A model generated the notes under the pieces. That model saw nothing but the letters and a program-made list of their open reading frames with translations. It searched no databases and was not told where the DNA came from. The translations under genes and the position numbers were made by a program. 64,000 nt of DNA from a virus. Below are positions 16,398 to 62,808 of this stretch, piece by piece. Within the stretch, counting starts at the first letter, position 1. The number at the start of each line of letters is the position of its first letter. The stretch lies in IMG/VR virus record IMGVR_UViG_3300045988_150084, one strand, 5' to 3'.

Positions 16398-17111
16398 TTA
16401 TTTACGAGGGAACTTGAAATCAAGCACCTTGGCCGCAGCCTCCTTGAGAACTGGGTCATTGCTGTTGAACTTCATCCACGTCAGAGACTTCATAGAAACC
16501 TCGGACAACTTTTTACCGTTGTTCATACTGCCGTCACTCACCACCATATCGAGGAGCTTCTGGATTTCCTCAGGTGCATTTGCCGTATCGACAGGCTTCT
16601 GATATGTGCTGCTTGAGCCGTAGGACTGCCGCTTGTCATACTCTACCTTGGCTTCGAGATTGCCACTACGCTCGTTCTCTGGGAGCGCCCAATCGGGGAG
16701 AGTAATCTTACCGTAGAAGCGTCCATTATGCAGGTCAACGCGCGGAGAATCAAGCTCATAGAGGTAGCGACCAATACCGAGCTGTGCCGCGGCACGCTTG
16801 AGAGCACCAGAGATAGCACCCTTGAGAGGAGAAGCCTGTTCCGTGAACTCAGCTCCGTCCGACTTGATGATAGTCTTGCCGCCGAACTCACACGCCAGAG
16901 TGCAGATAACACCCTTAGAGCAAGTCTCAAAACTGTCTTTCCAGCCCTCTACGCCGAAGACCTCATCGAGACGGTTCTGGATGCCACGTGCCGAGACATA
17001 GGCAAGCATCGTGCCGCTCTGACGGTCTTTGAAGGTACTACCTACACGCCACTCAATCTCTTTGCTGGAAAACGGTGCGCGGAGCAGTTCAGCTACATTT
17101 TTTTCTGCCAT
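16398..17111 (-). CDS. Rad52-family single-strand annealing protein (Sak-like)
   Basis: YVSARGIQNRLDEVFGVEGWKD...KGAISGALKRAAAQLGIGRYLY parallels the Rad52 N-terminal domain. The likely start is the ATG at 17111 with a GGAGGAAG RBS; the ORF track starts upstream at 17177. Confidence 0.65.
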   Translation of the reverse strand: MAEKNVAELLRAPFSSKEIEWRVGSTFKDRQSGTMLAYVSARGIQNRLDEVFGVEGWKDSFETCSKGVICTLACEFGGKTIIKSDGAEFTEQASPLKGAISGALKRAAAQLGIGRYLYELDSPRVDLHNGRFYGKITLPDWALPENERSGNLEAKVEYDKRQSYGSSSTYQKPVDTANAPEEIQKLLDMVVSDGSMNNGKKLSEVSMKSLTWMKFNSNDPVLKEAAAKVLDFKFPRK

Positions 17112-17286
17112 TTTGTTCTTCCTCCATCTTGAACTGAATATTAACCTTTGGCACATAGCGAGTACCGTGAGAATCAACGGCGTAAATCCTGATTGGAATA
17201 CCGTGTTTTATACAGTTTTTGCAATAAGCTGTTGCTTCGTTTACTTCGTCCGTGAGCACTCCAAATTCTTCGTGGATAAACGTCAT
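17089..17286 (-). CDS. Small CxxC protein (65 aa) leading the recombination operon; contains the spacer-2 protospacer
   Basis: An AGGAGG RBS sits 8 nt upstream of the ATG at 17286, and the protein has a CKNC motif. It overlaps the SSAP start. Confidence 0.45.
   Translation of the reverse strand: MTFIHEEFGVLTDEVNEATAYCKNCIKHGIPIRIYAVDSHGTRYVPKVNIQFKMEEEQNGRKKCS
17204..17243 (-). other. Protospacer-like self-match: 40/40 identity to spacer 2 of the array at 59539-59578 (in the reverse-complement sense)
   Basis: Checked base by base: plus strand 17204-17243 reads tgttttatacagtttttgcaataagctgttgcttcgttta, the reverse complement of spacer 2. Its position within ORF 17089..17286 was confirmed against that ORF's translation. 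Confidence 0.9.
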
Positions 17287-18722: not shown

Positions 18723-19634
18723 ATGATTTCTATCGACGTAGGATTCGGTAACACTAAGGTGTATGACGGCGAAACCTTAAACGTGTTCCCCTCTATCTAT
18801 TACCGCGCCAAGGCAGCCGAAGCCGTGAACGACCCAAGAGATATGCTCCTTGAACTTGACGGTGAAAGGTATCATGTTGGTATCACAGCCCTGCATAAAG
18901 GTGGGGAGTCACAGATGGAGCGTCACAACCTCCTCCGTCACAAGCTCTTCATTCTCTCTGCGATTTGCGCTACAACGAGAGGGGATTTCTCCGATAAGGT
19001 TCTTCTTGGTCTTCCGATTAGCGACATGGAGACGATGAAGGAATCTGTTGAAGGATTGAAAGGCGTATACCACGTTATTTTCAACGGAGAGACGCGAGAA
19101 ATCAACATCACGGCTATTAAGGTATATCCCCAGTCAGAAGCCGTATACAACCTCCTAGAGCGTCAGGACGAGAATATCAGAGACAAGGCAATCGGTATCA
19201 TCGACGTGGGACAGAAAACAGTTGACCTCGCCTACTACAACTACGGCACGCTTGATGATGATAGGTGCGGTAGTCTCACAAAACTCGGTTGCAAGTCGGC
19301 ATACCTTGACATCCAGAAAGCGCTTAATCGTGTCTGCGACATCGATACTGAGTGGTATCTGGTATCTAAGTTCTTGAACCGCGAAGCAATAGAAGAAGAT
19401 AAGAATCGTGCGTTTGAGGACATGGCGCGTAAGATTCTGAGCGCAACCAGTAATCTTGGATGGAACTACCATGAACTCGATGCAGTATACCTTATCGGCG
19501 GCGGTAGTTCTTATGTTGAGCCGTTTGTAAAAGAGCATGTAAAGGTTCTTACTGGAGAGAGCGAAAAAGTTATTATTCCGTCTAACCCAGTATTCGCGAA
19601 TGTGAGGAGTTACTACGAGGGGGAATTGAAATGA
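18723..19634 (+). CDS. parM: ParM/StbA-like actin-type partition ATPase
   Basis: Phosphate-1 ISIDVGFGNTK, phosphate-2 GIIDVGQKTVDLA, adenosine motif LIGGGS. A GAAGGAGGAA RBS precedes the ATG at 18723; the ORF track starts at an upstream ATG with no RBS. Confidence 0.7.
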   Translation: MISIDVGFGNTKVYDGETLNVFPSIYYRAKAAEAVNDPRDMLLELDGERYHVGITALHKGGESQMERHNLLRHKLFILSAICATTRGDFSDKVLLGLPISDMETMKESVEGLKGVYHVIFNGETREINITAIKVYPQSEAVYNLLERQDENIRDKAIGIIDVGQKTVDLAYYNYGTLDDDRCGSLTKLGCKSAYLDIQKALNRVCDIDTEWYLVSKFLNREAIEEDKNRAFEDMARKILSATSNLGWNYHELDAVYLIGGGSSYVEPFVKEHVKVLTGESEKVIIPSNPVFANVRSYYEGELK

Positions 19635-20044
19635 GCAAGAGAGTCTCAGTAGTATTTCCTGGGCTTATCGGGGACTATGTGGAAAAACGCATGAACCAGC
19701 TCGGTCTTACTCCTAGTCAGTTCCTTCATATCATGGTTATCAGGGACTTAATCAGACCGTTGACCATTGAAGAAGCTGGCATCTTGAGCATCGGCGTAGG
19801 TCGTATGAAGTCAGGCGGCAGTGCGGAACAGGTTATCGCTGGACTTGCCCCACTATTCGAGAGAGAAGGTTACTCCAAAAAACAGGAAGAGGAAGAACCT
19901 TTAGGAGACGATGACGTAAAGAAAGTGGTTAGCGACATCCTCTCCGAGCCAATCCCAGAACCGCCAAAGGTAGAAGAGCCAAAACAGACCGTAGAGAAAC
20001 ACCAAGACGAGCCTAAGATGGGGAATATGACAGGCTACATCTGA
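19631..20044 (+). CDS. parR: ParR-like ribbon-helix-helix partition adaptor with an acidic C-terminal tail
   Basis: The N-terminus RVSVVFPGLIGDYVEKRMNQLGLTPSQFLHIMV has an RHH-like strand-helix pattern. The gene overlaps parM (ATGA junction). The C-terminus is rich in E/D/P. Confidence 0.5.
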   Translation: MSKRVSVVFPGLIGDYVEKRMNQLGLTPSQFLHIMVIRDLIRPLTIEEAGILSIGVGRMKSGGSAEQVIAGLAPLFEREGYSKKQEEEEPLGDDDVKKVVSDILSEPIPEPPKVEEPKQTVEKHQDEPKMGNMTGYI

Positions 20045-20050
20045 AAATAG

Positions 20051-20092
20051 GCAAAAAAATAAGGGGACTGCGAAAGCAGCCCTCTTTTTATA
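20051..20092. terminator. Bidirectional intrinsic terminator between parR (+) and the XRE gene (-)
   Basis: The hairpin GGGACTGCGAAAGCAGCCC is flanked by an A-run on one side and a T-run on the other. Confidence 0.55.
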
Positions 20093-20534
20093 GTTTATTT
20101 TTTCTTTTCATCGGATATAAAGCGAATACGGCTTTCTCAAGGTCAGACGCAAGGTTTTTCTCCGCTGCTTCTTTTTCCAGCCGTAATTTTTCCTCGATTT
20201 GTTTCTTCTTATAAGCGGCGTAACCCCTTACGAGATAGTCGCGCCCTTCTCTTGTGTGAATCCATTTTTCCACATCAGCAGGGAGTGTAACAAGTTGTTC
20301 AGAAACACTAGCTTCACCTAACAGCGTATCGACAGGGATATTCATGCCCTCTGCGGCTTTGATGATGTTTTTGAGATAGACACGGCTACCCTTCATCGCT
20401 TGTAGGTATTGTGGTTTCCAGCCAATGCTACGGCAAAACTCGGCGGCAGAGATTTTATGCTGCTTGGTATATCTCTTAATAGTCTCGAACAGATAATCTC
20501 CGCTAATGTGTGTTGACTTACTATTATTTACCAT
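20088..20534 (-). CDS. XRE-family helix-turn-helix transcriptional regulator (candidate repressor)
   Basis: HTH ISAAEFCRSIGWKPQYLQAMKG. The ATG at 20534 has an AAGGAG RBS; the ORF track starts upstream. Confidence 0.55.
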   Translation of the reverse strand: MVNNSKSTHISGDYLFETIKRYTKQHKISAAEFCRSIGWKPQYLQAMKGSRVYLKNIIKAAEGMNIPVDTLLGEASVSEQLVTLPADVEKWIHTREGRDYLVRGYAAYKKKQIEEKLRLEKEAAEKNLASDLEKAVFALYPMKRKNKL

Positions 20535-50383: not shown

Positions 50384-50570
50384 TGGAAATCAGCCCCATC
50401 ACCTTAACCTCTGCAAACTCCTCTGGATTGACAAGAACATACCCATCGTGAGCGATAACCGCGCGGTGTTTGAGAATAATGACATCCTCATTCGTTCTTA
50501 CCTTGTAGACAACATTCTTTGGAGTATCCTTCGGTGCAACCTTCGTCGTAGTGGTTTTTCTTCGTGGCAT
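50376..50570 (-). CDS. Small head protein (64 aa)
   Basis: ORF track entry between the capsid and connector genes. Confidence 0.35.
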   Translation of the reverse strand: MPRRKTTTTKVAPKDTPKNVVYKVRTNEDVIILKHRAVIAHDGYVLVNPEEFAEVKVMGLISNE

Positions 50571-50654
50571 TGAATCAACTCCTTTAGAAGCCGCCGCTGA
50601 CGCTTTTTGTTTATTTGTTGGCTTACCAAGCGACTTATTACGAAAGGTTAGAGA

Positions 50655-51713
50655 TTAGTCGTGACTTGCCCCAGCACCAGCCGTAGCGTTCGTGGACGGA
50701 CTCTCATCTGTCTTGTTGACCGTGATAACATCCGTACCAACAGGAACCGTAGCCTCCGTCTCGCCGTCAATCGTGAGCAGGAGGTGACCGTAGTTACCGC
50801 CGCGCACGATGAACGTATCGAACAGAACCGCGATATAACGCTGTGCAAGGTCTTTCTCCGTGCCAAGCTGATACATACGCGGAACATCACTAGCCACGTA
50901 CTGACGCTCAAGGAGGTTCTCATCGACAATAGCAATCTTACCGACAGGGCAGTAAATATCCGTCACAATCGGCAGAACGCCAGCGACCGTCATAATGCCA
51001 GTCACCTTAATGCCAGGAAGAACCTCGACATCGTAGGTCTTGACCTTATCCTTCGCGTTAATCTCCTGAGACTCAAGTTTTGCCTTATCGAGCGGATTCA
51101 TGTAGATAGCAGTCGGCGTAACCTTGTACTTCTTGTTGTACATAAGCATAGCCACACCGTTGCGGATAGCCTCCGTCAGACGCGCGTCCTTAGCAATCGT
51201 ACCAGTCTTCTTAATCTGCGTGATGATGGAGCAATACTCGTGAGATGTGGAGTCCATGAGGTCTTTCGCACCGCCAGTCCACACAGCGCGGTCTTGTGCA
51301 TCGAGCATATCAGAGACAACTTCCGAAAGGTCTTGCGCTTGAAGGTCACCGAAAAGCCCCTGCTGCTGCGTAACCTCACGGTCAAACTTGCCGAACGTGA
51401 TACCATCAACCTCTGCGCGAATCAGAGCCGAACGCTCAACACGCTGGACTTGCGTATCAAGAGCATGGTCGATTGCACGCGGGTCAATGAACTTCTCCTT
51501 GGTGTCATGTGCGAGCTTCTCGAAGTAGCGCGTCGGATGGCCTGTTGCAGCCTTGGCCTTAACGCGCTGAAGGAGCGTACCCCGCTTGCGCGTCTTATCC
51601 ATAATCTGCGACTCGAAAACAGGGACATACAGTGCGCCTGTGCCGATATAGTCAGCCGTCGCGTTCGCGAAACTCATAAAGCGGCTCTCGCCGTCAAAAA
51701 GTCGAATACTCAA
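50655..51713 (-). CDS. Major capsid protein (HK97-fold candidate)
   Basis: 352 aa, directly downstream of the protease/scaffold gene. Called on position and size. Confidence 0.6.
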   Translation of the reverse strand: MSIRLFDGESRFMSFANATADYIGTGALYVPVFESQIMDKTRKRGTLLQRVKAKAATGHPTRYFEKLAHDTKEKFIDPRAIDHALDTQVQRVERSALIRAEVDGITFGKFDREVTQQQGLFGDLQAQDLSEVVSDMLDAQDRAVWTGGAKDLMDSTSHEYCSIITQIKKTGTIAKDARLTEAIRNGVAMLMYNKKYKVTPTAIYMNPLDKAKLESQEINAKDKVKTYDVEVLPGIKVTGIMTVAGVLPIVTDIYCPVGKIAIVDENLLERQYVASDVPRMYQLGTEKDLAQRYIAVLFDTFIVRGGNYGHLLLTIDGETEATVPVGTDVITVNKTDESPSTNATAGAGASHD

Positions 51714-51729
51714 ATTTTACCTTCCTCTC

Positions 51730-52752
51730 TTATGCCTGAAACTCGTCTTGATGCTCATTCCAGAGCTGGATTTTCTTCGCCCATTTCTGCTCTGCCGTCA
51801 GCTTATCGTTATCGTCGATAGCCTTGGAAAGCTCCATAGCCGTCTTCTTCTCACCGTCGAAACGCGGAAGGGATGCAAAGTCAACCTTCGTCTTGCGCTC
51901 TGGCTCTTTCTCCTCTGCCTTCGTCTCAACCTTCTTCTCGGCAAGTGTCTGTGCCATAGCGTCCTTGATACCAGCCGTGATAGCATCCTGCATAGCCGCA
52001 AAATCCATCTTCGGCTCTTCCTGCTTCGGCTCAGCCTTGTCTTCAACCTTGGACAGCTTTTCAACCGTCTCCGTCAGCGTCTTCATAGATGCTTCAAGAG
52101 CGGAAAACTTAGCGTCGAAAGCCTTTTTCTGCTCATCGAGAGCGTTCTTCGTTTCCTCGTTCAATTCTTCATTCTCCTTATTCATCATGGAACACATAAA
52201 CTTAGTATTCTGAAATGCCGCCTTGTTCTTGTAGAGGATTGCAACCCCTGTGAAGTGCGCTCCCAGCCCTGTAAGAGTCTGCGCTTTATCATCCCTCATC
52301 ACACCGTCAAAGTAAACTTCGACAGAGAACCCAAGAGAATCTTTTGCACTCTCAATCGTGTCACACACATCGGGAAAATCATTCTTCCACAAATGACCAG
52401 CAACAGCAATTTCATTACCGTTCAAATGAGCTTCATCAACCACGCCGACCTTAAATCGAGGAGCATGGTCTTTCAGATTATGTGCAGGGTCGCTAAAGAA
52501 ATCATCACTCCATTGGACGTTTACGCCGCTACCAGCAAGGGACTCCACATCAATATTTTCACTACTGATAATGGTTTTATATCCCATAATGCCGCCGCAT
52601 GGTGTACCGTCCGTGGGAGTATCAACATACCCAGCAACGCCGCTGAAATTCAATACGTCAGGATTGTTCTCGTCCTGCATCGTACTGAAACTAGAGAAAT
52701 TAAGCGTTACGCTCTTTCCCTCTGTCTTCTTCTGCTCGTTTCTTTTCGCCAT
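51730..52752 (-). CDS. Prohead protease fused to a scaffolding-like coiled-coil C-terminus
   Basis: An N-terminal globular domain followed by a long E/K/A-rich helical tail, between the portal and capsid genes. Confidence 0.5.
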   Translation of the reverse strand: MAKRNEQKKTEGKSVTLNFSSFSTMQDENNPDVLNFSGVAGYVDTPTDGTPCGGIMGYKTIISSENIDVESLAGSGVNVQWSDDFFSDPAHNLKDHAPRFKVGVVDEAHLNGNEIAVAGHLWKNDFPDVCDTIESAKDSLGFSVEVYFDGVMRDDKAQTLTGLGAHFTGVAILYKNKAAFQNTKFMCSMMNKENEELNEETKNALDEQKKAFDAKFSALEASMKTLTETVEKLSKVEDKAEPKQEEPKMDFAAMQDAITAGIKDAMAQTLAEKKVETKAEEKEPERKTKVDFASLPRFDGEKKTAMELSKAIDDNDKLTAEQKWAKKIQLWNEHQDEFQA

Positions 52753-54055
52753 CAGTCTTCTTTTTCACATCCTCTTTTTGGTCTTTGCCTAAACCATTAA
52801 ATCCACCAGTCTGCACAGCATATTTTTTATTCAATACCGATTTCATTTCTGCCTGAGTCATGTCGTTATACGGACTGTCAATATGCGGCATACCGATAGC
52901 ATTTCTATACTCTGCAAAGGTAATACCGTTGTTGTTCCATTGTTCCGTGAGCATCGTCTGCTTCTGTTGCTTCTGCGTCAGCGTGTCTTCAAAGACAAAC
53001 TCGAACTTCAAATAATCGCCCATACCTAAACGACCAATGATTTTCTTGTTAATCTCATCGGCAAGCAGTAAGCAATACGGACGAACCGCTTCATTAAGCA
53101 TGGACTCATTCTGCTCTTCCACAGTAGAACGGTCTGTATTGCTGCCCTGACCAAGTTTCTTAGGGTCAATACCAAAGGCAAGAGCAATCTCCGTGATTAA
53201 CTCTTTCTGCCATTCGAGGAACAGCCCTTCGTCACCGTCAGCACCAAGATGAAGTGCTTGAGCACCCTTTGTACCGCCGATAATTGCCTGTTCGCCGCGT
53301 CCCTGTACCTCTTCACGCCAATACTTTCTGAACGCATCGAGGTCTGCCTGTGAGACGTTCTCTCCAAGGTCAAGGGCATATTTAGGAATAGCATTGTCGG
53401 TCTGTGTAGAAGCGTATTCTTGAGCACTACTTAACGCATTGATATGCTGGAAAGCCGCTTCGATAGGAGATAAACCGTATGGCGTATCGACGGTCTTATT
53501 ATGCTGCAAATAAAGAACATCCTTGTCATACAGATACGTTCTATTCGCTCCTACGACCTGACAGAATCGGTAAAAATCTGGATTTGTGAAAAACCCTGTG
53601 ACATATTCAAGAGCGAAACCGTTAATCGGATATAACTTCATTGGTCTGCGAATGTCTCCAGTAAAGACAATCTCGGCCGCTCCATTATCTCCAATCAGGG
53701 TTTCATTGATAACCTGTCCCCAGAAAGACTCGTAGGTGTCTGTCTCGTTAGGGTGCAGGATAATATTCTCCAATGCTTTGATAGCAGCACCATAGGTACG
53801 TTTATCTCCTGCATTGGTAGGGACAATCCTCCAATTCTGCGCTAATACTCCGTCCCGAATAAGGGAAATAGCACGGTGAGGAATTGCCATTCGAGAAAAG
53901 TTCCGCAAGCTCCGTTCGTTTACCTTGATAAGCGAATCTTTTGGAGTAAAGTTAGGCAAAGAAATAATCGTCGTGGCAGACTGCCTTTGAAGGTGTCCGT
54001 CAGACGGTGTTTTAATGCCAAGGTGGAAAATCTTCCCGAAAGCTCTTATCTCCAT
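52700..54055 (-). CDS. Portal protein
   Basis: 451 aa immediately downstream of TerL, overlapping it by 10 nt. Confidence 0.6.
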   Translation of the reverse strand: MEIRAFGKIFHLGIKTPSDGHLQRQSATTIISLPNFTPKDSLIKVNERSLRNFSRMAIPHRAISLIRDGVLAQNWRIVPTNAGDKRTYGAAIKALENIILHPNETDTYESFWGQVINETLIGDNGAAEIVFTGDIRRPMKLYPINGFALEYVTGFFTNPDFYRFCQVVGANRTYLYDKDVLYLQHNKTVDTPYGLSPIEAAFQHINALSSAQEYASTQTDNAIPKYALDLGENVSQADLDAFRKYWREEVQGRGEQAIIGGTKGAQALHLGADGDEGLFLEWQKELITEIALAFGIDPKKLGQGSNTDRSTVEEQNESMLNEAVRPYCLLLADEINKKIIGRLGMGDYLKFEFVFEDTLTQKQQKQTMLTEQWNNNGITFAEYRNAIGMPHIDSPYNDMTQAEMKSVLNKKYAVQTGGFNGLGKDQKEDVKKKTDGEKKRAEEDRGKERNA

Positions 54056-55596
54056 TTTGTGAAAATCCCTCCCATCGGTGTTGGTTTCATGCGCGAGGAT
54101 AGTCCTCCAAAAACAAGGCGGTGAGACATATCAGGGAAAGCAGCAGAACAAATCATGTTAAGTGCATCCATTCCATCATCACTACCCTTTGGAAATCGTA
54201 AAAATTCGTTGACAAGTACAGTCTGGTCTTTGCGGAACTTGATGTATTTGTTCTTGATTCTCGGAATCATACCGCGAAGACGTAACTGCTTTTCAACCTT
54301 GCTGTTGTACTCATTAATTGGAATCTGAATACCAGCGTTCAGACCTCTCTTAGCAACTTCATCCTTGAACATTGCTTGGAACTGAACTGTCTCAATCGTC
54401 ACCGAAACAAGGTGGCTCTGATATTTCATAGAACCCGCAATAATGAGGTCAATGAGCCTGTCTGGCTTAAATCTTCCCATAGTCACATCAAGTACATAGA
54501 GGAACCCGTTCTCATCCTTACCAGCGAATATGATTGCTGCTCGGTCTGATTTTGCCTTGCCAAGAGAAGGGTCAACAGCGCCATAAACTTCCTTGATTTC
54601 TGGAAGTTCATAGTAGTAATCAAACCACTCAGGAAGGAACTCCGCGTTCGCAGGGTCAATCGGTTCATTCTGATACTCACTTGCAAAAGAACTACTATCG
54701 GAAACCCGAAGTTCCATCATATTCTCGTAATAATCTGGAGAACTCTCAGGCCAAAGAGATTCGACACCTTTAAGCATCTCATCTCTGTGCTTCTGATAGA
54801 ATTGATAGGCATCTTCGCCAGCCTTAGGGTTGTGCTCGTCCGTGAGAATTTGTTCCCAATCATCCCACAACGGAGAATCCGAAAAGTGCTGTACCGCTTG
54901 GTATCTCTTTCTGTCCCACATTGAGAACGCAGGAGCAGTTAAGAGCTTTTGCAGTAATGACTCATAGTGAAGCACCGTCCCAATATAGATATAGTCGCTT
55001 GTTGGTGTACCTACTGGGATAAGGGCTTTCATAAACCAGTTGAACAACTTTTTTCGTTGCGCTTCTGTCTCTACGTTTTCATCGTTCTCCAAATCATCGA
55101 TGATGATTAACTCAGGGCGAATCGAGCCGAACTTATTACCGCGAAGTTTCTGTCCAGCACCACGGCCATAAACCTGTACACGGTTAGAAGTAATAATCTT
55201 ATCTTGCGCCCATTTCTCTTCCGAAACAAGGTCACCAAAATCGGTTTTGATAAGGTCATTTTCTTCAAGTTCTGTCTTTATCGCCGAGATGAAAGAACGC
55301 GCTTGGTCTAACGTATCAGAAACGAGCAAAATGTTCCTTTTGTACTTGTAAACTATGCACCAGATAATCAGCAAAAACGAGATAACCTGCGACTTACCAT
55401 GTCCACGCGGAGCGGCTCGAACATAGAAGTTTTTTCGTCTTTTTCTCCTCAGAATCATGTCCTCTGCGGACTTGAAAATTTCCTTGTGTAAAGGGGAAAA
55501 TGCACAAGAAAATACCGAGGGGAAATAGGTAAGAGCGAACTTTTCAAGGGAAGTAGCACAGTCTTTCATGCGCTGTCCCGCGTCCTCTCTATCCAT
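54046..55596 (-). CDS. terL: Terminase large subunit
   Basis: Walker A motif RAAPRGHGKS, an ATPase N-domain and a nuclease C-domain, 516 aa. Confidence 0.8.
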   Translation of the reverse strand: MDREDAGQRMKDCATSLEKFALTYFPSVFSCAFSPLHKEIFKSAEDMILRRKRRKNFYVRAAPRGHGKSQVISFLLIIWCIVYKYKRNILLVSDTLDQARSFISAIKTELEENDLIKTDFGDLVSEEKWAQDKIITSNRVQVYGRGAGQKLRGNKFGSIRPELIIIDDLENDENVETEAQRKKLFNWFMKALIPVGTPTSDYIYIGTVLHYESLLQKLLTAPAFSMWDRKRYQAVQHFSDSPLWDDWEQILTDEHNPKAGEDAYQFYQKHRDEMLKGVESLWPESSPDYYENMMELRVSDSSSFASEYQNEPIDPANAEFLPEWFDYYYELPEIKEVYGAVDPSLGKAKSDRAAIIFAGKDENGFLYVLDVTMGRFKPDRLIDLIIAGSMKYQSHLVSVTIETVQFQAMFKDEVAKRGLNAGIQIPINEYNSKVEKQLRLRGMIPRIKNKYIKFRKDQTVLVNEFLRFPKGSDDGMDALNMICSAAFPDMSHRLVFGGLSSRMKPTPMGGIFTKWR

Positions 55597-55777
55597 TACC
55601 GCCTCGGCTGACGTAGTTTCCTCGATTGCCTTTGCTAACTCATCAAAATATCTTTTCTGCTTTATAGAATCACCCCTTTTAGTGCCTTGTCCCTGTCAGC
55701 ACCTTGGACACTCCCAAATTGCATGTCTTCCTCGTGCCTCAGCCTCGTGCCTACACTCATAAGCTAGGACTTTTGTT

Positions 55778-56317
55778 TTAGATGGCTCTGATTGTCTCGA
55801 ACATATCCGAACGTCGAAGCTCTTCAAAGACCTCGGCTTTAACTTGCGGGTATCTGTCTAGGATTTTCAAAAAGACTTCAAGAACTTTTCGCACCTTCTG
55901 GATGCCTAGCTGTTCTTTCTGAATTCTTGAAACGCTCTCGTTCAAATCTTCGAGAAACTTGCACGAATGGAGATAGGCGTTTGAGATGGAGGAAATCTCA
56001 GACAGCTTCTCTTCATCGTCTTTGAGGTTATCGAGTATTCTGCCGAGCTTGTTTGTATGCCTTACAAGACGGTTGCGGACACTCCATGCCTCGGAAAGAG
56101 CATTAAAGCGATTAACCGCTGTTGCGACATCATTCCTGCCTACGTCCGTTAAGCCATGCGCGGCGCAGTATCTTGAAATAGTCATTTTGTTCAACGGCTG
56201 CTCGCCAGCTGGGAGGGATTCTCTGTTGATTACATCGGCTACTTCTTCACAGGTAAGCGTCTTGCGGAGTTCAAGAACCTTCCTACCCAACCCGAGTTCA
56301 TCAATCCTGTACTTCAT
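55778..56317 (-). CDS. terS: Terminase small subunit (HTH)
   Basis: Upstream of terL, with an N-terminal HTH (LTCEEVADVINRESLPAGEQPLNKMTISRYCAAHG). The ATG at 56317 follows a GAGAGGTGA RBS. Confidence 0.5.
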   Translation of the reverse strand: MKYRIDELGLGRKVLELRKTLTCEEVADVINRESLPAGEQPLNKMTISRYCAAHGLTDVGRNDVATAVNRFNALSEAWSVRNRLVRHTNKLGRILDNLKDDEEKLSEISSISNAYLHSCKFLEDLNESVSRIQKEQLGIQKVRKVLEVFLKILDRYPQVKAEVFEELRRSDMFETIRAI

Positions 56318-56341
56318 GTAATCACCTCTCAATTTGTCCTC

Positions 56342-56376
56342 TCATATATTATCTATGGTGGCTTTTCAAGTAAAAA
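56342..56376 (-). promoter_or_regulatory. Conserved upstream element, copy A (TTTTTACTTGAAAAGCCACCATAGATAATATATGA on the minus strand), upstream of terS
   Basis: 31/35 identical to copy B at 57946-57980. Contains TTGAAA and TAATAT boxes. Confidence 0.45.
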
Positions 56377-56640
56377 AGGGCTGAAATTCCAAAAAAAATC
56401 ATTTTTAATCAAATTTTTAACTAAAATAGCTATAAGATATATCTTTTATAAAGAACCTGAGAGTAAGAACAGGAAGTTGACCTCGGATGCGACGAGGACA
56501 TGAAGCGATGATTTTGTGACTATATTTTCGTGCTCCTTGTGACGCTCCAGAGCAAAGATGTCATTTTTCGCGTTTTTTACGATAAAAAGTACCCTCGATT
56601 TTGCCACGCGATAACTTATACCTGTGAAAGATTCGAGAGG

Positions 56641-56670
56641 GATTTCCTTCGTAAATTTACGAAGGAAATC
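56641..56670. repeat. Perfect 30-bp palindrome gatttccttcgtaaatttacgaaggaaatc
   Basis: The first half is the reverse complement of the second half. It lies 25 nt downstream of the ORF 56695..56982 stop and 310 nt upstream of terS. Confidence 0.6.
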
Positions 56671-56694
56671 CGCTTAAAATCGATTTTACGTTAA

Positions 56695-56982
56695 TTACCT
56701 ACCCCCTTTTCCCTTGTTGAGAGTCTTCATAGCGGCAGAACGAGCTTTTTTTGTGCTGTCAGAAATACTATTTTTCCCACGTCGGAATGTAAGTAGCTTC
56801 TTTGGAACTCGATATTCTACTGCCCAGATATGTCGATTGGTCTTGAATACCTGATAGCGTGGATAAATCTTGTCCAGCTTCGTAATCATCTTCGTGTCGC
56901 TTGTCCAAATCCTCATCTCGTCAGGCTCTCGCTCAAACTCAATAACGGTTTCTTGTTCTTCTTTTGCTGTGTACTCTTTCAT
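56695..56982 (-). CDS. Hypothetical basic protein (96 aa)
   Basis: The ATG at 56982 has an AAGGAG RBS 7 nt upstream. The ORF track extends upstream without an RBS. Confidence 0.45.
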   Translation of the reverse strand: MKEYTAKEEQETVIEFEREPDEMRIWTSDTKMITKLDKIYPRYQVFKTNRHIWAVEYRVPKKLLTFRRGKNSISDSTKKARSAAMKTLNKGKGGR

Positions 56983-57492
56983 GTAAACTCCTTTCAGCGT
57001 TCGGCTAAAGCCGAATTGTCTTTTCCAGACAATCAAATGTTTGCTAATCGAGGAAATAGGGTTGTGACTGCCTACAAGCGGCGTAGCCGCATACCTAGCC
57101 ATATAGATATATTTATACCCATTGGTCGTGCGAAGGGGCTTAGAGCGAACGTCAGGCGGTCGGTTTCTATCGACGGCGTGGCTTCGTGATACGCCCGAGT
57201 GCGTGGTGAGCGGAACACACACTCTTGGTTCGTCTGCTTGATATATATAAATACATCTACACAGATTGAAACATGAATGTTTCTTTTGCTAATCTCTTAC
57301 AGAGAGTTTTACTAATCGGAGAAGTTGGTCGGGGGAAGGCTTGTCAAAGCCGACACCGATATTATTTATTTAAGATATACGTTAGTATAGATTAAATAAA
57401 TAATACATTTTATTAACACCCTTGTATGTATATATATTAATTAGATGGGGTAATTTTTCCCCCTAATTGTGCTGCCTGTCAGATTTGCCCCC

Positions 57493-57795
57493 TCAGATGG
57501 TGATTTTAAGTCGATACAGAGACGGGACTCCCCTCTGGCGCGATGGTGCATATTCAATCATTCCCTTCTCGATTAGTTCCCTTCTTGCTCTATGAATCGT
57601 TTTTCTGGCCATTCCAGTATCTTGAACCGCTAGGCGGTCTGTGTAACAGAACTCTCCTTCTCTGCCCTTCCAAGACAAAATGAGAAACAGTTTCAATGCC
57701 GATGGCGAGGTTTCCTTGATTCTCTTGATAAATTCGTAGTTCACTTCTTCCTCCTGTGATTCTTCTTCCTGATTCGCGACCATTTCAGCCGACAT
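57493..57795 (-). CDS. Winged-helix transcriptional regulator (100 aa)
   Basis: An acidic N-terminus followed by a wHTH-like KTIHRARRELIEKGMIEY. Confidence 0.45.
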   Translation of the reverse strand: MSAEMVANQEEESQEEEVNYEFIKRIKETSPSALKLFLILSWKGREGEFCYTDRLAVQDTGMARKTIHRARRELIEKGMIEYAPSRQRGVPSLYRLKITI

Positions 57796-57926
57796 TTCAC
57801 CTTTGCGCCGCTATACACTTTCTTCCGATGGGGACATTCATAGACACCTTCCCAGTAGTATAACCCCTGACAGTACATCAAAGCATAGTTCCTCGATAAG
57901 CCGATTTTGTTTCCTAGTATCTTCAT
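57741..57926 (-). CDS. Small basic protein (61 aa)
   Basis: ATG with a GAAGGGGGAA RBS, directly downstream of conserved element copy B. Confidence 0.35.
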   Translation of the reverse strand: MKILGNKIGLSRNYALMYCQGLYYWEGVYECPHRKKVYSGAKVKCRLKWSRIRKKNHRRKK

Positions 57927-57945
57927 GGCGTAAAAATTCCCCCTT

Positions 57946-57980
57946 CATATATTATCCGCGGTGACTTTTCAAGTAAAAAC
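57946..57980 (-). promoter_or_regulatory. Conserved upstream element, copy B
   Basis: tcatatattatccgcggtgacttttcaagtaaaaa is 31/35 identical to copy A. Confidence 0.45.
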
Positions 57981-58453
57981 ACGCTCAAATACATTAAAGT
58001 TACATTAGAATTATATTATAGAAAGCTATAAGAGTTAACATGATGTAATGCTACCCAGTAACACTCAATCATATTGCCTTGACATCCCTTTTGCCATGCG
58101 CCCTCGGCGGCTCTGAAATTGTCCTCCCTGAGTGATACTTGACAATAGCGCGTAACACCGTGAGTAACGCCAAAAACTGCTGCCTATGTACACCCTCAAC
58201 AGACACCATCTTCCTCGATTTGTAAACTAAAAAACGCAAAGTGCTTGACGATGTATACGAGAATAAAGCGCCCCCTAGCTGGATTAAGTGTTTTTTGCAG
58301 GTTTGCCGAAAATTGCCCCATCTAGCCCCAATCCTTTAGTTAGTTGAAGAGCCTGTGAAGCCTTATACCACAAGGGCTGGCGGCACTTCCACGTTGCATA
58401 ATTGATATTATAAAACGATTGAGAATAATTTCCAATAACGTGTATTAATCAAG

Positions 58454-58974
58454 TTGTCTGACAATTTCTTATTGATAGATTTTCTCATTTACTTTGACCT
58501 TTTGTCCTATATCATTTCTGCATATTATGCGCGCGTATTATGCTATTTTTGTATGTACGCCTCCAGTGGACACGTTACTAAAATATACCCCTCTAGGGTA
58601 TACCAAAGTCAAACTTAATTTTACTTCTATTTTATCCAATTCAATTTAGCTAAATCGTTTTTATCCTTAGTAGCATCAAGGCTTTTCGCATATCCAGTCC
58701 CATTTAGTAATATATCTTGTTACATAATCATACCCGATATCATTAAGTCTTATTCAATCATACCTAGTAATACCCTTGCATATCGGAGAAGTGTGTTTTA
58801 GCAAAGTAAAGTAAATAGTATTCATACTTGATTGCTATGTTTTAGTAAAGTAAAGAGACAGGAAAATAGTCCTATTTAATTCTCTCAACCCTTGTAATTA
58901 CTAGCTTCATCGCCCTTGTACTCTCTCGATGCACATTTGTTTTGCCTTATCAAATTATTATTGTCTGACAATTT
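58454..58974. repeat. AT-rich noncoding region with several direct repeat families (iteron-like)
   Basis: TTGTCTGACAATTT appears twice (58454, 58961) and contains a TTGTC-N-GACAA palindrome. TTTTAG(C/T)AAAGTAAAG appears twice (58796, 58840). CCCTTGTAATTACTAGCTTCATC appears twice (58889, 58996). No ORF of 60 aa or more lies between 57930 and 59345. Confidence 0.55.
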
Positions 58975-59428
58975 ATTTTTCTTGTTGCCCGCCAGCCCTT
59001 GTAATTACTAGCTTCATCACTGTTTTCTACCTTTTTCTAATAAAACAAAATATCCATGCTCATATATCAACGCCCCGCCAGCCCACTAACTACGCCGCCT
59101 GATAGCCTTTTCGATTAGCAAAAAATCATCACTTTCTCTCATATAAAAATACACGCGAGGAAATCCCTTATTGATAATATTTCTCAAAGGAATTAAAAAT
59201 AAAAAGACTTGCACGTTATTCGTCGCTTGCTATAACAAAGTTGCAATCGGGAACGGCCCGAAAGGGAAATGAACCGAAAGCAATCCATCCGACGCCCGCG
59301 GGGGGGCCGAACAAGACGCCCCGCTTAAAAGAGAAAGAAAGGAGATGAAAAGGCCGCTATCAGGCCCAGCACGCCCGCCGCAGTCAACTTCTATTAATAG
59401 TTCTTTGAAAATTTCATATTGCAGGGGG

Positions 59429-59613
59429 GTTTCCGTCCCCTTACGGGGATTTTGTTTTTCAACGAAGAAGAGTTTTATTCGACCGTCGCGCCCGCTGATG
59501 AAAGTTTCCGTCCCCTTACGGGGATTTTGTTTTTCAACTAAACGAAGCAACAGCTTATTGCAAAAACTGTATAAAACAGTTTCCGTCCCCTTACGGGGAT
59601 TTTGTTTTTCAAC
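59429..59613 (-). CRISPR. Mini-CRISPR array with 3 identical 35-nt repeats (gtttccgtccccttacggggattttgtttttcaac on the plus strand) and two 40-nt spacers; type III-A-like repeat read on the minus strand
   Basis: Repeats at 59429-59463, 59504-59538 and 59579-59613 are identical. Spacers are 59464-59503 and 59539-59578. The repeat reverse complement GTTGAAAAACAAAATCCCCGTAAGGGGACGGAAAC has the hairpin plus ACGGAAAC tag layout typical of type III-A repeats. Strand is inferred from that. Confidence 0.8.
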
Positions 59614-59734
59614 ACGCTCGTCGGGAATAGAGTTACGCGAGTACCCTGCTATATGGATTAATATTGACCCGTAGACTCCGAGAACAGGGGACGCGGCCGG
59701 CGAGGGCCTCTAACGTGACAGGTTAGTAGGTACG

Positions 59735-59989
59735 GTGAACCACACTCAAGCCGGTTTTAAGAAGTACCGAAGGCCTTCTTGCGTCTCACACGACAACCGA
59801 CTCGGGGAGACAGGCCGGAGGGGCGTTAAGTTGCGCCCGCTTGTTGGCAGCACGGTATTACTTTATGTAGTATCGCCGGAGGTCGAGCAGTTCAATAAGG
59901 CCGAGTATGACGTCAAGGCGGGCCGCGTTGATAATCTCGGCGTGTTCTGTCAGCAGTTCATGCTGGCCGGTATGAAGGAGGTGAAGTAA
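59735..59989 (+). CDS. Doubtful ORF (GTG start, weak RBS) in the GC-rich region between the array and the early genes
   Basis: ORF track entry only. The region may instead be the array leader or a structured RNA. Confidence 0.2.
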   Translation: MNHTQAGFKKYRRPSCVSHDNRLGETGRRGVKLRPLVGSTVLLYVVSPEVEQFNKAEYDVKAGRVDNLGVFCQQFMLAGMKEVK

Positions 59990-59991
59990 AG

Positions 59992-60180
59992 ATGTTCTGG
60001 AAAGCGTTCCACTCCTACTACTACACGGAGGACGAGGAAGAACGTGCCGAACTGTTGCAGGACTTCCCCGCCGCCGTGCCGATGACGGAAGAAGAGTTTT
60101 ATTCGACCGTCGTGCCCGCTGATGAAATCATGGTGACGGGGAACTACCTTCACGCCTATGGAGAAGTAGATTTCCTGTAA
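59992..60180 (+). CDS. Small acidic early protein (62 aa); contains the spacer-1 protospacer
   Basis: ATG preceded by GGAGGTG. First in the plus-strand run of small genes. Confidence 0.55.
   Translation: MFWKAFHSYYYTEDEEERAELLQDFPAAVPMTEEEFYSTVVPADEIMVTGNYLHAYGEVDFL
60088..60127 (+). other. Protospacer-like self-match: 39/40 identity to spacer 1 (59464-59503), single C/T difference at 60113
   Basis: Aligned by hand. The mismatch converts GCG (Ala) in the spacer version to GTG (Val) in the gene. Confidence 0.85.
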
Positions 60181-60331
60181 GGCACGCGCCCAAACCGACC
60201 ATTTCCGGCCGCGCCGGGCGTTTGTTTTCGCGCTTGAACGCGCTACGAGCCTACGCAAGTTTCCCCGATTTGCATAGGTTTGCTAATGCTGTCAAGCAGA
60301 TTTGTTGTTTCTATCTAAGGGAGGAAAAACC

Positions 60332-60655
60332 ATGAAACTTGTCAATCTTACGCCGCACGCTATCAACATCTATGGGCAGGACGCGTCGACGGTGCTCGTC
60401 ACGGTCGAACCGACTGCGCCCGCCGCTCGTTGCGCCCAGCGCTCCGAGGTTTGCGGGTACGCAGGGGAAATCCCCATCTACCGCATGGAGTTCGGGGAGG
60501 TGGAGAACCTGCCCGAGCCTGTCGAGGGAACGGTTTACATTGTCTCGCGGCTGGTCGCTACGGCGGTCAATCGTGCCGATGTGTTCTGCCCTGGCGCGGC
60601 GGTACGCGACGAGGCTGGCCGTGTCGTGGGCTGTGTAGGACTGTCCCGCGTGTAA
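60332..60655 (+). CDS. Hypothetical protein (107 aa), markedly GC-rich relative to its neighbours
   Basis: ATG with an AAGGGAGGAAAAACC RBS. Rich in Ala/Arg/Val/Gly. Confidence 0.5.
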   Translation: MKLVNLTPHAINIYGQDASTVLVTVEPTAPAARCAQRSEVCGYAGEIPIYRMEFGEVENLPEPVEGTVYIVSRLVATAVNRADVFCPGAAVRDEAGRVVGCVGLSRV

Positions 60656-60738
60656 GAGAGAACAAGATACACAAAGGCACTCATGGAAACATGGGTGCTT
60701 TTATTGTGTTTTGTTCTAGTTCAAGGGAGGAATTGATT

Positions 60739-60969
60739 ATGAAGTCATTTACCTTTGGTGCGTGGAAAGTATGTATCTGGGAGGCCTTTGATGGTGTGTA
60801 CCAAGGGGAGGCTGTCCTAACGAAAGCCCCGCCGAAAGGCGCTGATGTACCTTCTATCATGCTGGAGGGTATTCCATTCATAGTAAGCTCGAAGGGAGTA
60901 GAGGGAAAGAACGTGAAGTATATCTTCCCGCCACTTATCCCGCGTATCCTCGACGCGCTCAAGGGCTGA
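60739..60969 (+). CDS. Hypothetical protein (76 aa)
   Basis: ATG with an AAGGGAGGAATTG RBS. The ORF track extends upstream in a spurious GC-rich frame. Confidence 0.5.
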   Translation: MKSFTFGAWKVCIWEAFDGVYQGEAVLTKAPPKGADVPSIMLEGIPFIVSSKGVEGKNVKYIFPPLIPRILDALKG

Positions 60970-61050
60970 AACAAGGCAGATAAAGCCGTCTATCGTGACA
61001 GGTAGGCGGCTTTCTTGTGTTTTGTTTTTCTCTAAAAAGGAGGTATTTTC

Positions 61051-61281
61051 ATGGAATTTGTACTGTACCACGACAGGGATTACGTCTCTGTTCGCGGGGA
61101 GGGTGCTCTGTATGTTCTGATGGACAAGGCGAGCGCGGAAATGATTGTTGATGCCGCGTTTGTGATTTTCCAAGACGGCACTACGGAAAGGGAGTTATGG
61201 GAGAACGCGACAATCCTCGAGCAGACGCGCGACAAGCGCGCTATTGCGGCTCTCAAACAGCAGTATAAGGAGGTGTATTAA
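61051..61281 (+). CDS. Hypothetical protein (76 aa)
   Basis: AAAAGGAGGTATTTTC RBS. Confidence 0.5.
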   Translation: MEFVLYHDRDYVSVRGEGALYVLMDKASAEMIVDAAFVIFQDGTTERELWENATILEQTRDKRAIAALKQQYKEVY

Positions 61282-61434
61282 ATGCGTACCGTAGCGACTT
61301 ACGGCTGTTATCAGCTGGAGCAGCTGGGCAACGGCCTTTTCCGTATTCTGCGGAACTGGCATCCGTTCAAGGAACTGTACCTCGTAGGGGAAGAAAACGC
61401 TAAAGCATACTTTTACGAGTTCGTTCGCGGCTGA
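61282..61434 (+). CDS. Hypothetical small protein (50 aa), not in the ORF track
   Basis: A TAAATG junction with the preceding gene. My own translation is MRTVATYGCYQLEQLGNGLFRILRNWHPFKELYLVGEENAKAYFYEFVRG. Confidence 0.35.
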   Translation: MRTVATYGCYQLEQLGNGLFRILRNWHPFKELYLVGEENAKAYFYEFVRG

Positions 61435-61515
61435 TTGATAGCGACGGAGGGAATAAGGCAACTCGTTCCTTCTACGGTGTTAACCAACTATCTATATCTA
61501 TGGGAGGTAATAACA

Positions 61516-61785
61516 ATGAAGTTAAACTGGCTTGAGGATGTAAAAATCCGAAACAAGAACTGGAAGGCCTCTTTAATGAGGTATGAACTTCCAAAACAGG
61601 GAAAGGTCTGGTACGCAGGATGGGTTCACTACAGCAGGAAATATCTCCGCGCCGAAAAACTGATGGGTACGGAGTGGGAAGGCGACGGCGTAACGGTGTA
61701 CCAAGCCGGCCGTATCTCTTTCGACTGGCAAGGCTGGGTTTCTCCCTTCATCTCCGCCGAGCTTGCGAAGAAGTGCAAGTTCTGA
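61516..61785 (+). CDS. Hypothetical Trp-rich protein (89 aa)
   Basis: ATG with a TATGGGAGGTAATAACA RBS. Confidence 0.5.
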   Translation: MKLNWLEDVKIRNKNWKASLMRYELPKQGKVWYAGWVHYSRKYLRAEKLMGTEWEGDGVTVYQAGRISFDWQGWVSPFISAELAKKCKF

Positions 61786-61872
61786 GAATCAAGGCAGAAA
61801 GAAAGCCGCTTATCGCAAAAGGTAGGCGGTTTTATTGTGCCGTGATTTTATCTATTAAGGGAGGAAACAACA

Positions 61873-62259
61873 ATGAAAGCAACAATGAAAAATGGGAAGG
61901 TAATCTATACCGACAAGGCAAGCGACTACGCGAAAAAGAAGGGGCGTCTTGACTATGCTTCTATGGTCGAGTGGTGTACGGAGGGGCAAATGGTGATGCT
62001 GTCCGTATCTCCGTGGAAACTCTCGGAGGACTGGCAAAAACAGGTCGAAGAGGAAGAGACGGAGGAGGCATACGAGGACGAGGAGGAAGAAGTTTTTCAG
62101 TGGTTTATCATTGACGATACTGCGGCAGATTTCTTTGCACAGCTCACGAACGAACTGATTTATTACAGCGAATACCTTGATATGTATCTGCTCGGCGTGA
62201 CTCATTGGGGAACAAGATGGGATTATGTTTTGACCGAGTGGAAACTGGAGGAGGAATAA
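61873..62259 (+). CDS. Hypothetical acidic protein (128 aa)
   Basis: TTAAGGGAGGAAACAACA RBS and an internal poly-E stretch. Confidence 0.5.
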   Translation: MKATMKNGKVIYTDKASDYAKKKGRLDYASMVEWCTEGQMVMLSVSPWKLSEDWQKQVEEEETEEAYEDEEEEVFQWFIIDDTAADFFAQLTNELIYYSEYLDMYLLGVTHWGTRWDYVLTEWKLEEE

Positions 62260-62262
62260 ACG

Positions 62263-62544
62263 ATGAAGGAGTGTAAAAACATCTACGAGTTAAAGGACTT
62301 TCCCTATGAAAAGTTTGATTACTGGGACGTAGAGGATTTGACGAAGAGCATCAAGAGGATTGTTGACAATACGGTAGAGGAACAAATCGAGGACGCTATT
62401 GCAGAAGAACAGGAGGAGACTGTTTACTGGCAAAACCTCGCCGACGACGTTGCGTCCGAGCGCGACGAATTACAGAAGGAGGTTGATGAGCTGAAAGAAA
62501 AGTTGAAGGAATACGAGGATGATGGGGAAGTCTTTCCATTTTAA
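62263..62544 (+). CDS. Hypothetical acidic coiled-coil protein (93 aa)
   Basis: CTGGAGGAGGAATAAACG RBS. Confidence 0.5.
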   Translation: MKECKNIYELKDFPYEKFDYWDVEDLTKSIKRIVDNTVEEQIEDAIAEEQEETVYWQNLADDVASERDELQKEVDELKEKLKEYEDDGEVFPF

Positions 62545-62556
62545 GGAGGAGTAACA

Positions 62557-62808
62557 ATGAAAATGAAAGCTATGCCGAGCGCGATGGACACGCTTCTCGA
62601 TTTGAGAGACAGCATTGTGCATGAACTGAATTACATTGAGAAAGCGCAGAAGGTGATGGATGAAGAGTATATGGGAGACTATTTCAAAGCGGTGAACAAG
62701 AGGAAGAAATCGTTCCTTATCGCGACATACAATATGCTCCCCGATGAGGTAGAGGAAGGTGTTATCAAGAAGGAAGGTGAAGAGGAATGGCACGAAAACT
62801 GGTTCTGA
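62557..62808 (+). CDS. Hypothetical protein (83 aa)
   Basis: TTAAGGAGGAGTAACA RBS. Confidence 0.5.
   Translation: MKMKAMPSAMDTLLDLRDSIVHELNYIEKAQKVMDEEYMGDYFKAVNKRKKSFLIATYNMLPDEVEEGVIKKEGEEEWHENWF

Follow-up and report, generated by a model that had tools for sequence, protein, structure and literature searches.

A self-matching type III-A CRISPR mini-array in a gut phage of Selenomonas, possibly directed against related phages

The DNA considered here (the window: a stretch of 64,000 nucleotides, nt, from IMG/VR virus record IMGVR_UViG_3300045988_150084) is part of a circular phage genome of 67,731 nt, and holds at 59429-59613 a very small array of short palindromic repeats, clustered and regularly interspaced (CRISPR). 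Three identical 35-nt repeats (GTTTCCGTCCCCTTACGGGGATTTTGTTTTTCAAC), set at a period of 75 nt, enclose two spacers of 40 nt each. Both spacers match small genes of the phage's own genome, spacer 1 a gene called here gp62 and spacer 2 a gene called gp65 (Table 1). The phage is a gut phage of Selenomonas. The matches, together with the host machinery that could use them, suggest tentatively that the array is aimed at related phages.

Spacer 1 agrees with 60088-60127, within gp62, at 39 of its 40 positions, the only difference being C at 59489 in the spacer against T at 60113 in the gene. The identity ends exactly where the spacer does on either side; when the window was shuffled 100 times, no match with three or fewer mismatches arose. 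The difference falls at the second position of codon 41, which is GCG (Ala) in the spacer version and GTG (Val) in gp62. An earlier note on this DNA had described this match with its single C/T difference, had placed it inside the reading frame of 62 amino acids (aa) with Ala in the spacer and Val in the gene, had put it about 470 base pairs from the array, and had held that both spacers point at the genome that carries them. All of this is confirmed: by the shuffles, by the codon comparison, by the start of the protospacer 474 nt past the last repeat and, for spacer 2, by a 40/40 match to the minus strand at 17204-17243.

The gene itself is an orphan. No Pfam or PHROG match to gp62 was obtained, and no relative was found in IMG/VR; a collection of 5.8 billion protein clusters holds one homologue cluster, and only three alleles occur in approximately 15 billion proteins. 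The allele of the window, with Val, is on 14 contigs. The two alleles with Ala, P0001 and P0003, are on two contigs and one contig, respectively. The 58-kb contig L084 encodes P0001 and shares 99.5% identity with the window over 50546-59243 (structural genes). This sister phage has no CRISPR repeat, and it matches spacer 1 at 40/40, having the exact Ala/C protospacer. T at 60113 is found in every array-bearing assembly, namely the window, L086, L088, L089 and (with a shortened array) L085. Thus, the suggestion of the earlier note that the spacer came from the allele of a close relative is supported by the exact site in the array-free L084, and its proposed comparison of Ala and Val among gp62 homologues came out as it predicted, with Val on 14 contigs and Ala on 3.

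Because L084, P0003 and spacer 1 itself all carry C, the T at 60113 is probably the derived state. It is the sole difference between the window and L084 in the 343 nt of 60018-60360; the remaining differences near gp62 cluster at 59983-60017 and 60361-60600. The chance that a lone change would land in the 40-nt protospacer is about 0.12, which is suggestive and not significant. In the sense of the CRISPR RNA (crRNA), the mismatch lies at guide position 15 and sets a guide G against a target U, a G:U wobble. By report, mismatches disturb type III systems less than other CRISPR types (PMC9297841). Since the change gives only a wobble and type III systems tolerate mismatches, it is unlikely that T at 60113 protects the carrier from spacer 1. 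The caution, voiced from the start, that one mismatch may not give escape is made stronger by the wobble.

Spacer 2 is a different case, as its match is perfect. Its 40-mer is identical (40/40) in all ten related contigs fetched around gp65, one of which, L097, is from the same sample as the array-free L084. Promoter-like sites TTGACA-17-TATTAT and TTGACG-17-TATACT precede gp65, which has a replication-initiator-like gene on one side and genes for Rad52, a primase-helicase and Pol III alpha on the other. Its family comprises one cluster of 30 sequences at 90% identity and 25 further clusters. For gp65, no Pfam or PHROG match was found, an AlphaFold 2 (AF2) model (predicted local distance difference test score, pLDDT, 71) had no significant fold match in the PDB, and a search of IMG/VR with a degenerate gp65 motif returned nothing. 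As an observation in its own right, gp65 has a conserved CxxC..H motif, and is a small, highly conserved gene common to two unrelated phages.

The second of these phages is a podophage. Members of the gp65 family with 55 aa are encoded by phi29-like podophages of approximately 12.3 kb (L104 4194-4361, L105, L106), which are common in gut assemblies and have genes for a connector, a Phi29-type capsid, a Gp16 ATPase and a protein-primed polymerase. Between the family of the array phage and the podophage, gp65 DNA is 85.6% identical. Over guide positions 1-35 (positions 6-40 of spacer 2), 33/35 agree with the podophage; guide position 12 forms a G:U wobble, and guide position 6 a U:C mismatch. 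In the family alignment, the half of the guide nearest the tag pairs with the most conserved part of gp65 (YCKNCIKH), and the 3' end of the guide covers variable residues. This 3' end is probably trimmed. A spacer in the host array on L102 matches the podophage at 28/30. This, in turn, means that the same host CRISPR system targets the podophage.

Table 1. Positions of the array, its targets and the surrounding features in the window
Feature	Position	Strand	Remarks
gp65, 65-aa gene	17089..17286	-	first gene after two strong promoters, replication module
Protospacer 2, sense strand of gp65	17204..17243	-	perfect match to spacer 2; inside gene, not intergenic
Promoter-like sites of early leader	59171..59236	+	TTGATA-18-AAAAAT; TTGCAC-17-TATAAC conserved in L084
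CRISPR repeat 1	59429..59463	-	35/35 to the other two copies; leader-distal if polarity is as in host arrays
Spacer 1, 40 nt	59464..59503	-	guide is the reverse complement; 39/40 to 60088-60127; 40/40 to L084 10097-10136
CRISPR repeat 2	59504..59538	-	perfect copy
Spacer 2, 40 nt	59539..59578	-	40/40 to 17204-17243 (minus); 33/35 to phi29-like podophages L104-L106
CRISPR repeat 3	59579..59613	-	perfect copy
Early leader right of array	59614..59883	+	host protospacers at 59623-59659 and 59666-59695
3' remnant of 192-aa gene	59884..59989	+	gene intact in L084; rest lost by 625-nt deletion
gp62, 62-aa acidic orphan gene	59992..60180	+	first intact plus-strand early gene; called as a gene in public assemblies
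Protospacer 1, sense strand of gp62	60088..60127	+	T at 60113 gives G:U wobble with guide position 15

The array is genuine and stable. The same junctions occur on both of its sides in the window, L085, L086, L088 and L089, which come from independent samples and different assemblers (L086 is a SPAdes NODE contig, L088 and L089 are k127 contigs, and L085 is a k119 contig), and the array is seen in several cohorts. L085 has at 9513-9622 only repeat, spacer 2 and repeat; exactly one 75-nt unit, a repeat with spacer 1, is missing from a sequence that is otherwise 99.96-100% identical to the array-bearing phage. This implies that spacer 1 is dispensable and that spacer 2 is retained. Metagenome assembly does, of course, carry a general risk of chimeras. 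Here, reads from a host array might have been joined to a phage contig through the 40-nt identity, and the one-unit difference of L085 could in principle be a collapse. The likelihood of such a chimera is, however, negligible. The two-sided junctions recur across independent samples and assemblers, the k-mers used exceed both the 40-nt match and the 35-nt repeat, and phage sequence homologous to L084 forms the flanks as far as the repeats. On the strength of the recurring junctions, the chimera was rejected.

The scanned open reading frames (ORFs; 47 small ORFs and others, by Pfam) showed no cas domain, and neither did the Pfam annotation of related contigs, which span most of the genome and take in the stretch beyond the window. 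The phage array is an orphan, having no cas genes beside it in the same replicon.

The host has what the phage lacks. The repeat is identical at 35/35 positions to that of long arrays in genomes of uncultured Selenomonas/Selenomonadaceae and in metagenome contigs, where arrays with this repeat flank cas1, cas2, cas10 (HD and palm domains), csm2, csm3, csm4, csm5, cas6 and csm6 (CARF-HEPN). Loci with the identical repeat and type III-A cas genes are L001/L003, L102, L113 and L114. Spacers in the host arrays are 35-42 nt long, a range that includes the 40 nt of the phage spacers. To judge by these identities, the array belongs to the type III-A (Csm) system of a Selenomonas host. The earlier assignment to type III stands, as the identical repeat flanks cas1-cas2-cas10-csm2-csm5-cas6-csm6 in Selenomonas contigs. 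The host locus is like the type III-A loci of Streptococcus thermophilus and Staphylococcus epidermidis in having cas1, cas2, cas10, csm2-5, cas6 and csm6, in a repeat that forms a CCCC/GGGG hairpin followed by an 8-nt tag, and in spacers that are antisense to mRNAs. Unlike the arrays of those two systems, the array on the phage, whose working is predicted from sequence, lies away from cas genes and outside the host chromosome. As a separate observation, L002 2768-2868 (Selenomonadaceae) has one full and one truncated repeat beside the same leader and promoter as host locus L004, and appears to be a decayed CRISPR locus.

Several lines of evidence fix the polarity of the repeat. Written with GTTTCCG, the repeat is on the strand opposite to the host cas genes. 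The degenerate terminal repeat of a host array adjoins cas1, L004 has a minus-strand promoter (TTGACA-17-TAAAAT) 42 nt from the first repeat, and the best Rfam match, below threshold, is CRISPR-DR18 on the minus strand. In the minus-strand repeat, GTTGAAAAACAAAATCCCCGTAAGGGGACGGAAAC, a hairpin (CCCCGUAAGGGG) is followed by the 8-nt tag ACGGAAAC. That tag is the 5' tag of type III-A crRNAs in S. thermophilus (PMC9297841). Further, 10 of the 11 interpretable host spacers that match these phages are sense to the target mRNA in the GTTTCCG orientation, and their crRNAs would, as a consequence, be antisense to the mRNA. Both phage spacers have the orientation of these ten, and the crRNA sense is the minus strand. 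The lone exception among the 11 is the spacer at L113 1875-1915, which matches window 35071-35111 (a tail-region gene) at 41/41 in an orientation that is unable to pair with mRNA.

From the coordinates, crRNA 1 is predicted to read ACGGAAAC-UUUCAUCAGCGGGCGCGACGG... and to pair with gp62 mRNA, and crRNA 2 to read ACGGAAAC-UGUUUUAUACAGUUUUUGC... and to pair with gp65 mRNA. In type III systems, a target whose flank pairs with the crRNA tag is read as "self". Here, the 3' flanks are TCATGGTG at gp62 and CGGTATTC at gp65, each of which agrees with the anti-tag GTTTCCGT at 1/8 positions; the flank of the podophage protospacer, CTGTATTC, agrees at 2/8. With 1/8 agreement, neither the gp62 nor the gp65 target would be read as "self". 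Protection of the carrier's own protospacers by an anti-tag was considered and rejected for both on these flanks, which were read directly from the sequence.

The explanation favoured here, whose chance is put a little short of even, is that the phage carries a type III-A mini-array that uses the Cas6 and Csm of its host against kin phages and the podophage. The array would be transcribed leftward, on the minus strand, and host Cas6 would cut the repeats to give crRNAs that start with ACGGAAAC. Host Csm, once loaded with these, would bind the sense mRNAs of gp62 and gp65, each the first intact gene behind an early promoter. Binding in the absence of an anti-tag would switch on Cas10, whose cyclic oligoadenylate would activate Csm6, and the HD nuclease would act as well, so that the incoming phage is aborted. 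The phages excluded would be the array-free sisters of the L084 type, which match spacer 1 at 40/40 in L084 and spacer 2 at 40/40 in L097, and the approximately 12.3-kb phi29-like podophage that shares gp65. Self-tolerance must then be explained. Presumably, the carrier would escape attack only as long as it keeps its own gp62 and gp65 silent, as a lysogen or a plasmid; silence would be needed because T at 60113 gives only a G:U wobble. Goldberg et al. reportedly found in 2014 that type III targeting depends on transcription and that a silent prophage is tolerated. The lifestyle genes of the phage (an integrase, a ParM-like cassette and an XRE-like regulator) are counted in favour of this explanation.

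Much can be said against it. The flanks of the phage array share nothing with host leaders, and a scan to the right of the array found no minus-strand sigma-70-like promoter. This second objection is weak, since the real leader of L113 also scores none; the L004 host leader, unlike that of L113, does give a sigma-70 match. The array lies antisense inside the plus-strand early leader, and on the plus strand each repeat is terminator-like, having a hairpin of -9.6 kcal/mol and then a U-tract, with three such in tandem within the leader. RNA of the early leader would run into the array antisense to the crRNA sense. Spacer 2 matches the carrier's own gp65 perfectly with no anti-tag, and spacer 1 differs from the carrier's gp62 by a wobble that a mismatch-tolerant type III system (PMC9297841) would be expected to accept. 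Thus, if crRNAs are made, the carrier should be attacked via spacer 2, and almost certainly via spacer 1 too. No ring nuclease, CARF protein or other known type III counter-measure was found by Pfam in the 47 small ORFs. No junction of an integrated prophage was seen, as all contigs have circular junctions only. Lastly, more distant relatives have no array at this site: of 79 TerL relatives in IMG/VR, none carries the repeat or one of the two spacers, and no other array resembling CRISPR lies upstream of their terminase.

The self-match invites a reading in which there is no enemy. The phage might direct host Csm, as an RNA-guided ribonuclease, against its own transcripts of gp62 and gp65 so as to silence them, either at a set time or in a carrier state. 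Both spacers are indeed antisense to the first intact gene behind an early promoter of the phage's own genome, the perfect match of spacer 2 is conserved in all carriers, and regulatory mini-arrays exist in types I and V, according to a survey (bioRxiv 10.1101/2023.03.03.530964). This self-regulation is, however, very improbable. With no anti-tag at either target, the full Cas10/Csm6 response is to be expected rather than a quiet knock-down. Known regulatory mini-arrays use partial matches, and so avoid interference; the same survey lists no regulatory mini-arrays of type III (bioRxiv 10.1101/2023.03.03.530964). Further, the sister phage L084 manages without an array.

How the array came to lie where it does is suggested by its surroundings. 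A long, GC-rich leader precedes the early genes (window 59207-59990; L084 8665-9420). From 8685 onward, the L084 leader is matched in the sense orientation by host spacers (L003_174_215, L113_3288_3322, L113_3142_3178, L113_3431_3471, and further L114_5680_5721, L114_5379_5417 and L102_1184_1225). In the window, L113_3069_3106 matches 59623-59659 at 37/37 and L102_11158_11197 matches 59666-59695 at 27/30, both on the plus strand. Four of the six newest L113 spacers match the leader (host array L113 3069-3471). These matches mark the leader as the main hot spot of Selenomonas type III-A spacers. Rfam gave no structured RNA family for the leader, and only sub-threshold CRISPR-DR matches.

Targeting by the host extends beyond the leader. 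Among host spacers recovered from translated array ORFs, at least five match the 192-aa gene of L084, and others match the early genes at 60535-61800 or replication genes. In the array-bearing phage, a 625-nt deletion (L084 9271-9896) with its junction at a CGAGCAG microhomology has removed most of the 192-aa gene. This looks like an escape from type III targeting.

The array itself came by replacement, not insertion. The leader segment 59243-59621 stands in place of L084 8699-9030, and the array takes the place of approximately 90-110 nt of the L084 leader. On the left, homology to L084 reaches repeat 1; on the right, it resumes approximately 7 nt past repeat 3. Each flank is a protospacer of host arrays, and the two have the same orientation, the left flank corresponding to L084 8903-8930 (matched by L003_174_215 and L113_3288_3322) and the right to 59623-59659. 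Homology up to the repeats and flanks that are host protospacers are what recombination between a host array and the leader would be expected to leave, and such recombination would also fix the orientation. Most likely, the array was taken over from a host array when the two recombined in the early leader. A donor array was sought among 144 unique host spacers from eight array loci, none of which is spacer 1 or spacer 2, and neither spacer turned up in 64 spurious ORFs translated across host arrays (protein database, translated array frames). L113 (seen as P0069), the sole host array with both flank spacers, has them in the reverse of the order needed for a double crossover.

Capture might also have left no more than a passive relic. 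On this view, part of a host III-A array, with spacers raised against this phage family, was copied in by spacer/protospacer recombination in the leader, gives no crRNA and has no function. Its persistence would be due either to the recency of the event or to hitch-hiking with an escape rearrangement, the replacement of the leader together with deletion of the 192-aa gene. This reading accounts well for the documented host protospacers on both flanks in matching orientation, for a site within the leader that is the main host-spacer target (with four of six newest L113 spacers), and for the replacement of approximately 90-110 nt of it. It requires neither the host leader nor the promoter that were sought and not found, and it explains the self-matching spacers and their orientation without selection in the phage. 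In addition, the same lineage deleted the gene matched by at least five host spacers, and L085 lost the unit with spacer 1. Nevertheless, this relic is unlikely, if far from implausible. Neither spacer is present in the 144 unique host spacers and 64 translated array ORFs, and the order of the flank spacers in L113 is reversed with respect to what a double crossover needs. Only about 8% of the sampled host spacers match this phage family, so that two adjacent ones require clustering or selection. Finally, all three repeats are still perfect, and the array has reached several cohorts.

The transcription of the leader bears on two further readings, in both of which the plus strand matters. In the first, the array acts as an antisense decoy that presents anti-tags (in effect, an RNA anti-CRISPR), or its repeats serve as early terminators of the targeted leader. 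The plus-strand RNA would be complementary to host repeats and tags, and would hold sense copies of gp62 and gp65 sequence, each before a perfect anti-tag (GUUUCCGU). Such RNA could keep Csm busy while Cas10 stays inactive, or could anneal to host pre-crRNA and so prevent its processing. A conserved plus-strand promoter does lie directly upstream, the host spacers indicate that the leader is transcribed from the plus strand, every plus-strand spacer copy precedes GTTTCCGT, the exact complement of the tag, and the repeats are terminator-like on that strand. RNA anti-CRISPRs built of repeat units are known in phages, as a review states (PMC11656645).

Such a decoy is improbable. Csm cleaves and releases targets that have an anti-tag, and a large excess of decoy would be needed. 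Three terminator-like repeats in tandem should halt most plus-strand transcripts at repeat 1, before the spacer copies are reached. It would help only against host crRNAs with exactly these two spacers, and none was found. Further, the known Racr elements are repeat units on the sense strand, not antisense arrays.

The second reading is a variant in which aggression is kept and an antidote is added. Minus-strand crRNAs would arm Csm against early transcripts of the whole family, the carrier included. The antisense leader of the carrier would then shut the array and yield targets with a perfect anti-tag, read as "self", and array carriers alone would be exempt. Both this poison and its antidote are judged quite improbable. 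If they were true, the tag/anti-tag self-recognition of type III systems would have moved from the host into competition between phages. Whatever probability remains belongs to explanations beyond those set out here.

Use of a host effector by a virus against its kin, the explanation favoured here, has precedents. In SPV1 and SPV2, portogloboviruses of Saccharolobus, mini-arrays target each other's carriers, with targets in the vicinity of the arrays and point mutations or deletions at the loci of the carrier itself (Medvedeva et al. 2019, PMC6858448). A review extends the same inter-viral logic to phage mini-arrays in general (PMC11656645), and a survey counts 1,132 mini-arrays in 1,005 viral genomes (bioRxiv 10.1101/2023.03.03.530964).

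The phage array resembles those of SPV1 and SPV2 in having one or two spacers, no cas genes and host repeats; in spacers that match close relatives; in targets near the array; in a point mutation of the carrier's own site (here for spacer 1 only); and in its proposed role, heterotypic superinfection exclusion. It thus has one or two spacers without cas, host-identical repeats, and matches to close array-free relatives, as inter-viral mini-arrays do. The carrier's own sites, however, are not disabled, as spacer 2 matches at 40/40 and spacer 1 is off by a G:U wobble only. SPV1 and SPV2 are archaeal viruses with recognisable leaders, in which self-sites are mutated or deleted in a way that prevents self-targeting. 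Here, the system is a bacterial type III-A, no leader was found, spacer 2 matches the carrier perfectly, and an unrelated podophage is within reach.

The catalogued mini-arrays of phages and prophages have host-identical repeats and one or two spacers mostly aimed at related viruses, as here; unlike the catalogued ones, this phage family has no member among GenBank phages or PLSDB plasmids. A type III-A mini-array with a perfect self-match and an array-free sister was not seen in the portions read of the review and survey (PMC11656645; bioRxiv 10.1101/2023.03.03.530964). Racr elements likewise place host CRISPR repeats on a phage without cas genes. They are, however, single repeat units that have no targeting spacer and act as sense crRNA mimics; the array here has three repeats and two full-length spacers with real targets.

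Capture also has a parallel. Varble et al. are said to have described, in 2019 in Nat Microbiol, recombination between phage protospacers and CRISPR spacers and the transduction of CRISPR loci. Homology between spacer and protospacer offers, as there, a route by which array DNA could have entered the phage. Unlike that transduction of CRISPR loci, a small fragment of an array would here have been kept in the phage genome, and the donor array was not found.

What sets this mini-array apart is that it is bacterial, of type III-A, self-matching, antisense within the most targeted transcript, and able to reach an unrelated phage by way of a gene that both share. The usual view of virus-borne mini-arrays is that they turn a host CRISPR effector on relatives of the carrier, and the tested cases are archaeal, with the carrier's own sites mutated. 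The human gut offers a natural trio, an array-bearing phage, a near-identical sister that has no array and exact matches to both spacers, and an unrelated podophage within reach of one spacer, all tied to a complete type III-A system of Selenomonas. Type III targeting requires transcription and puts up with mismatches, and so the perfect self-match prompts the question of how a phage carries a type III guide against itself. The locus also records an arms race, with host spacers piled on the leader, a targeted gene deleted, and the array set exactly between two host protospacers. These three features make capture by spacer-protospacer recombination testable.

The circularity of the genome is seen in L085, where 17741-20189 corresponds to window 1-2449 and 14009 to window 64000; a public contig of 67,850 nt is the 67,731-nt genome plus a 119-nt k-mer overlap. 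By blastn, neither the array nor the region 58800-62800 has a match in GenBank phages or PLSDB plasmids, and the repeat has no exact match in IMG/VR. The phage genes include a terminase, a portal, a capsid, a tail protein of 2,909 aa and an XRE-like regulator. A ParM-like actin with a small partner gene (18690-20044, plus strand) is transcribed in the direction opposite to the replication genes; a tyrosine integrase lies just outside the window (L085 14469-15350). With these, the gene content reads as phage-plasmid-like. Five tRNA genes (Thr, Tyr, Gln, Lys and Leu) form a cluster at 5258-5862 on the minus strand. In the early region, a 59-nt terminator-like element is present twice, at 60982-61040 and 61802-61860 (76% identical), each time after a short early gene.

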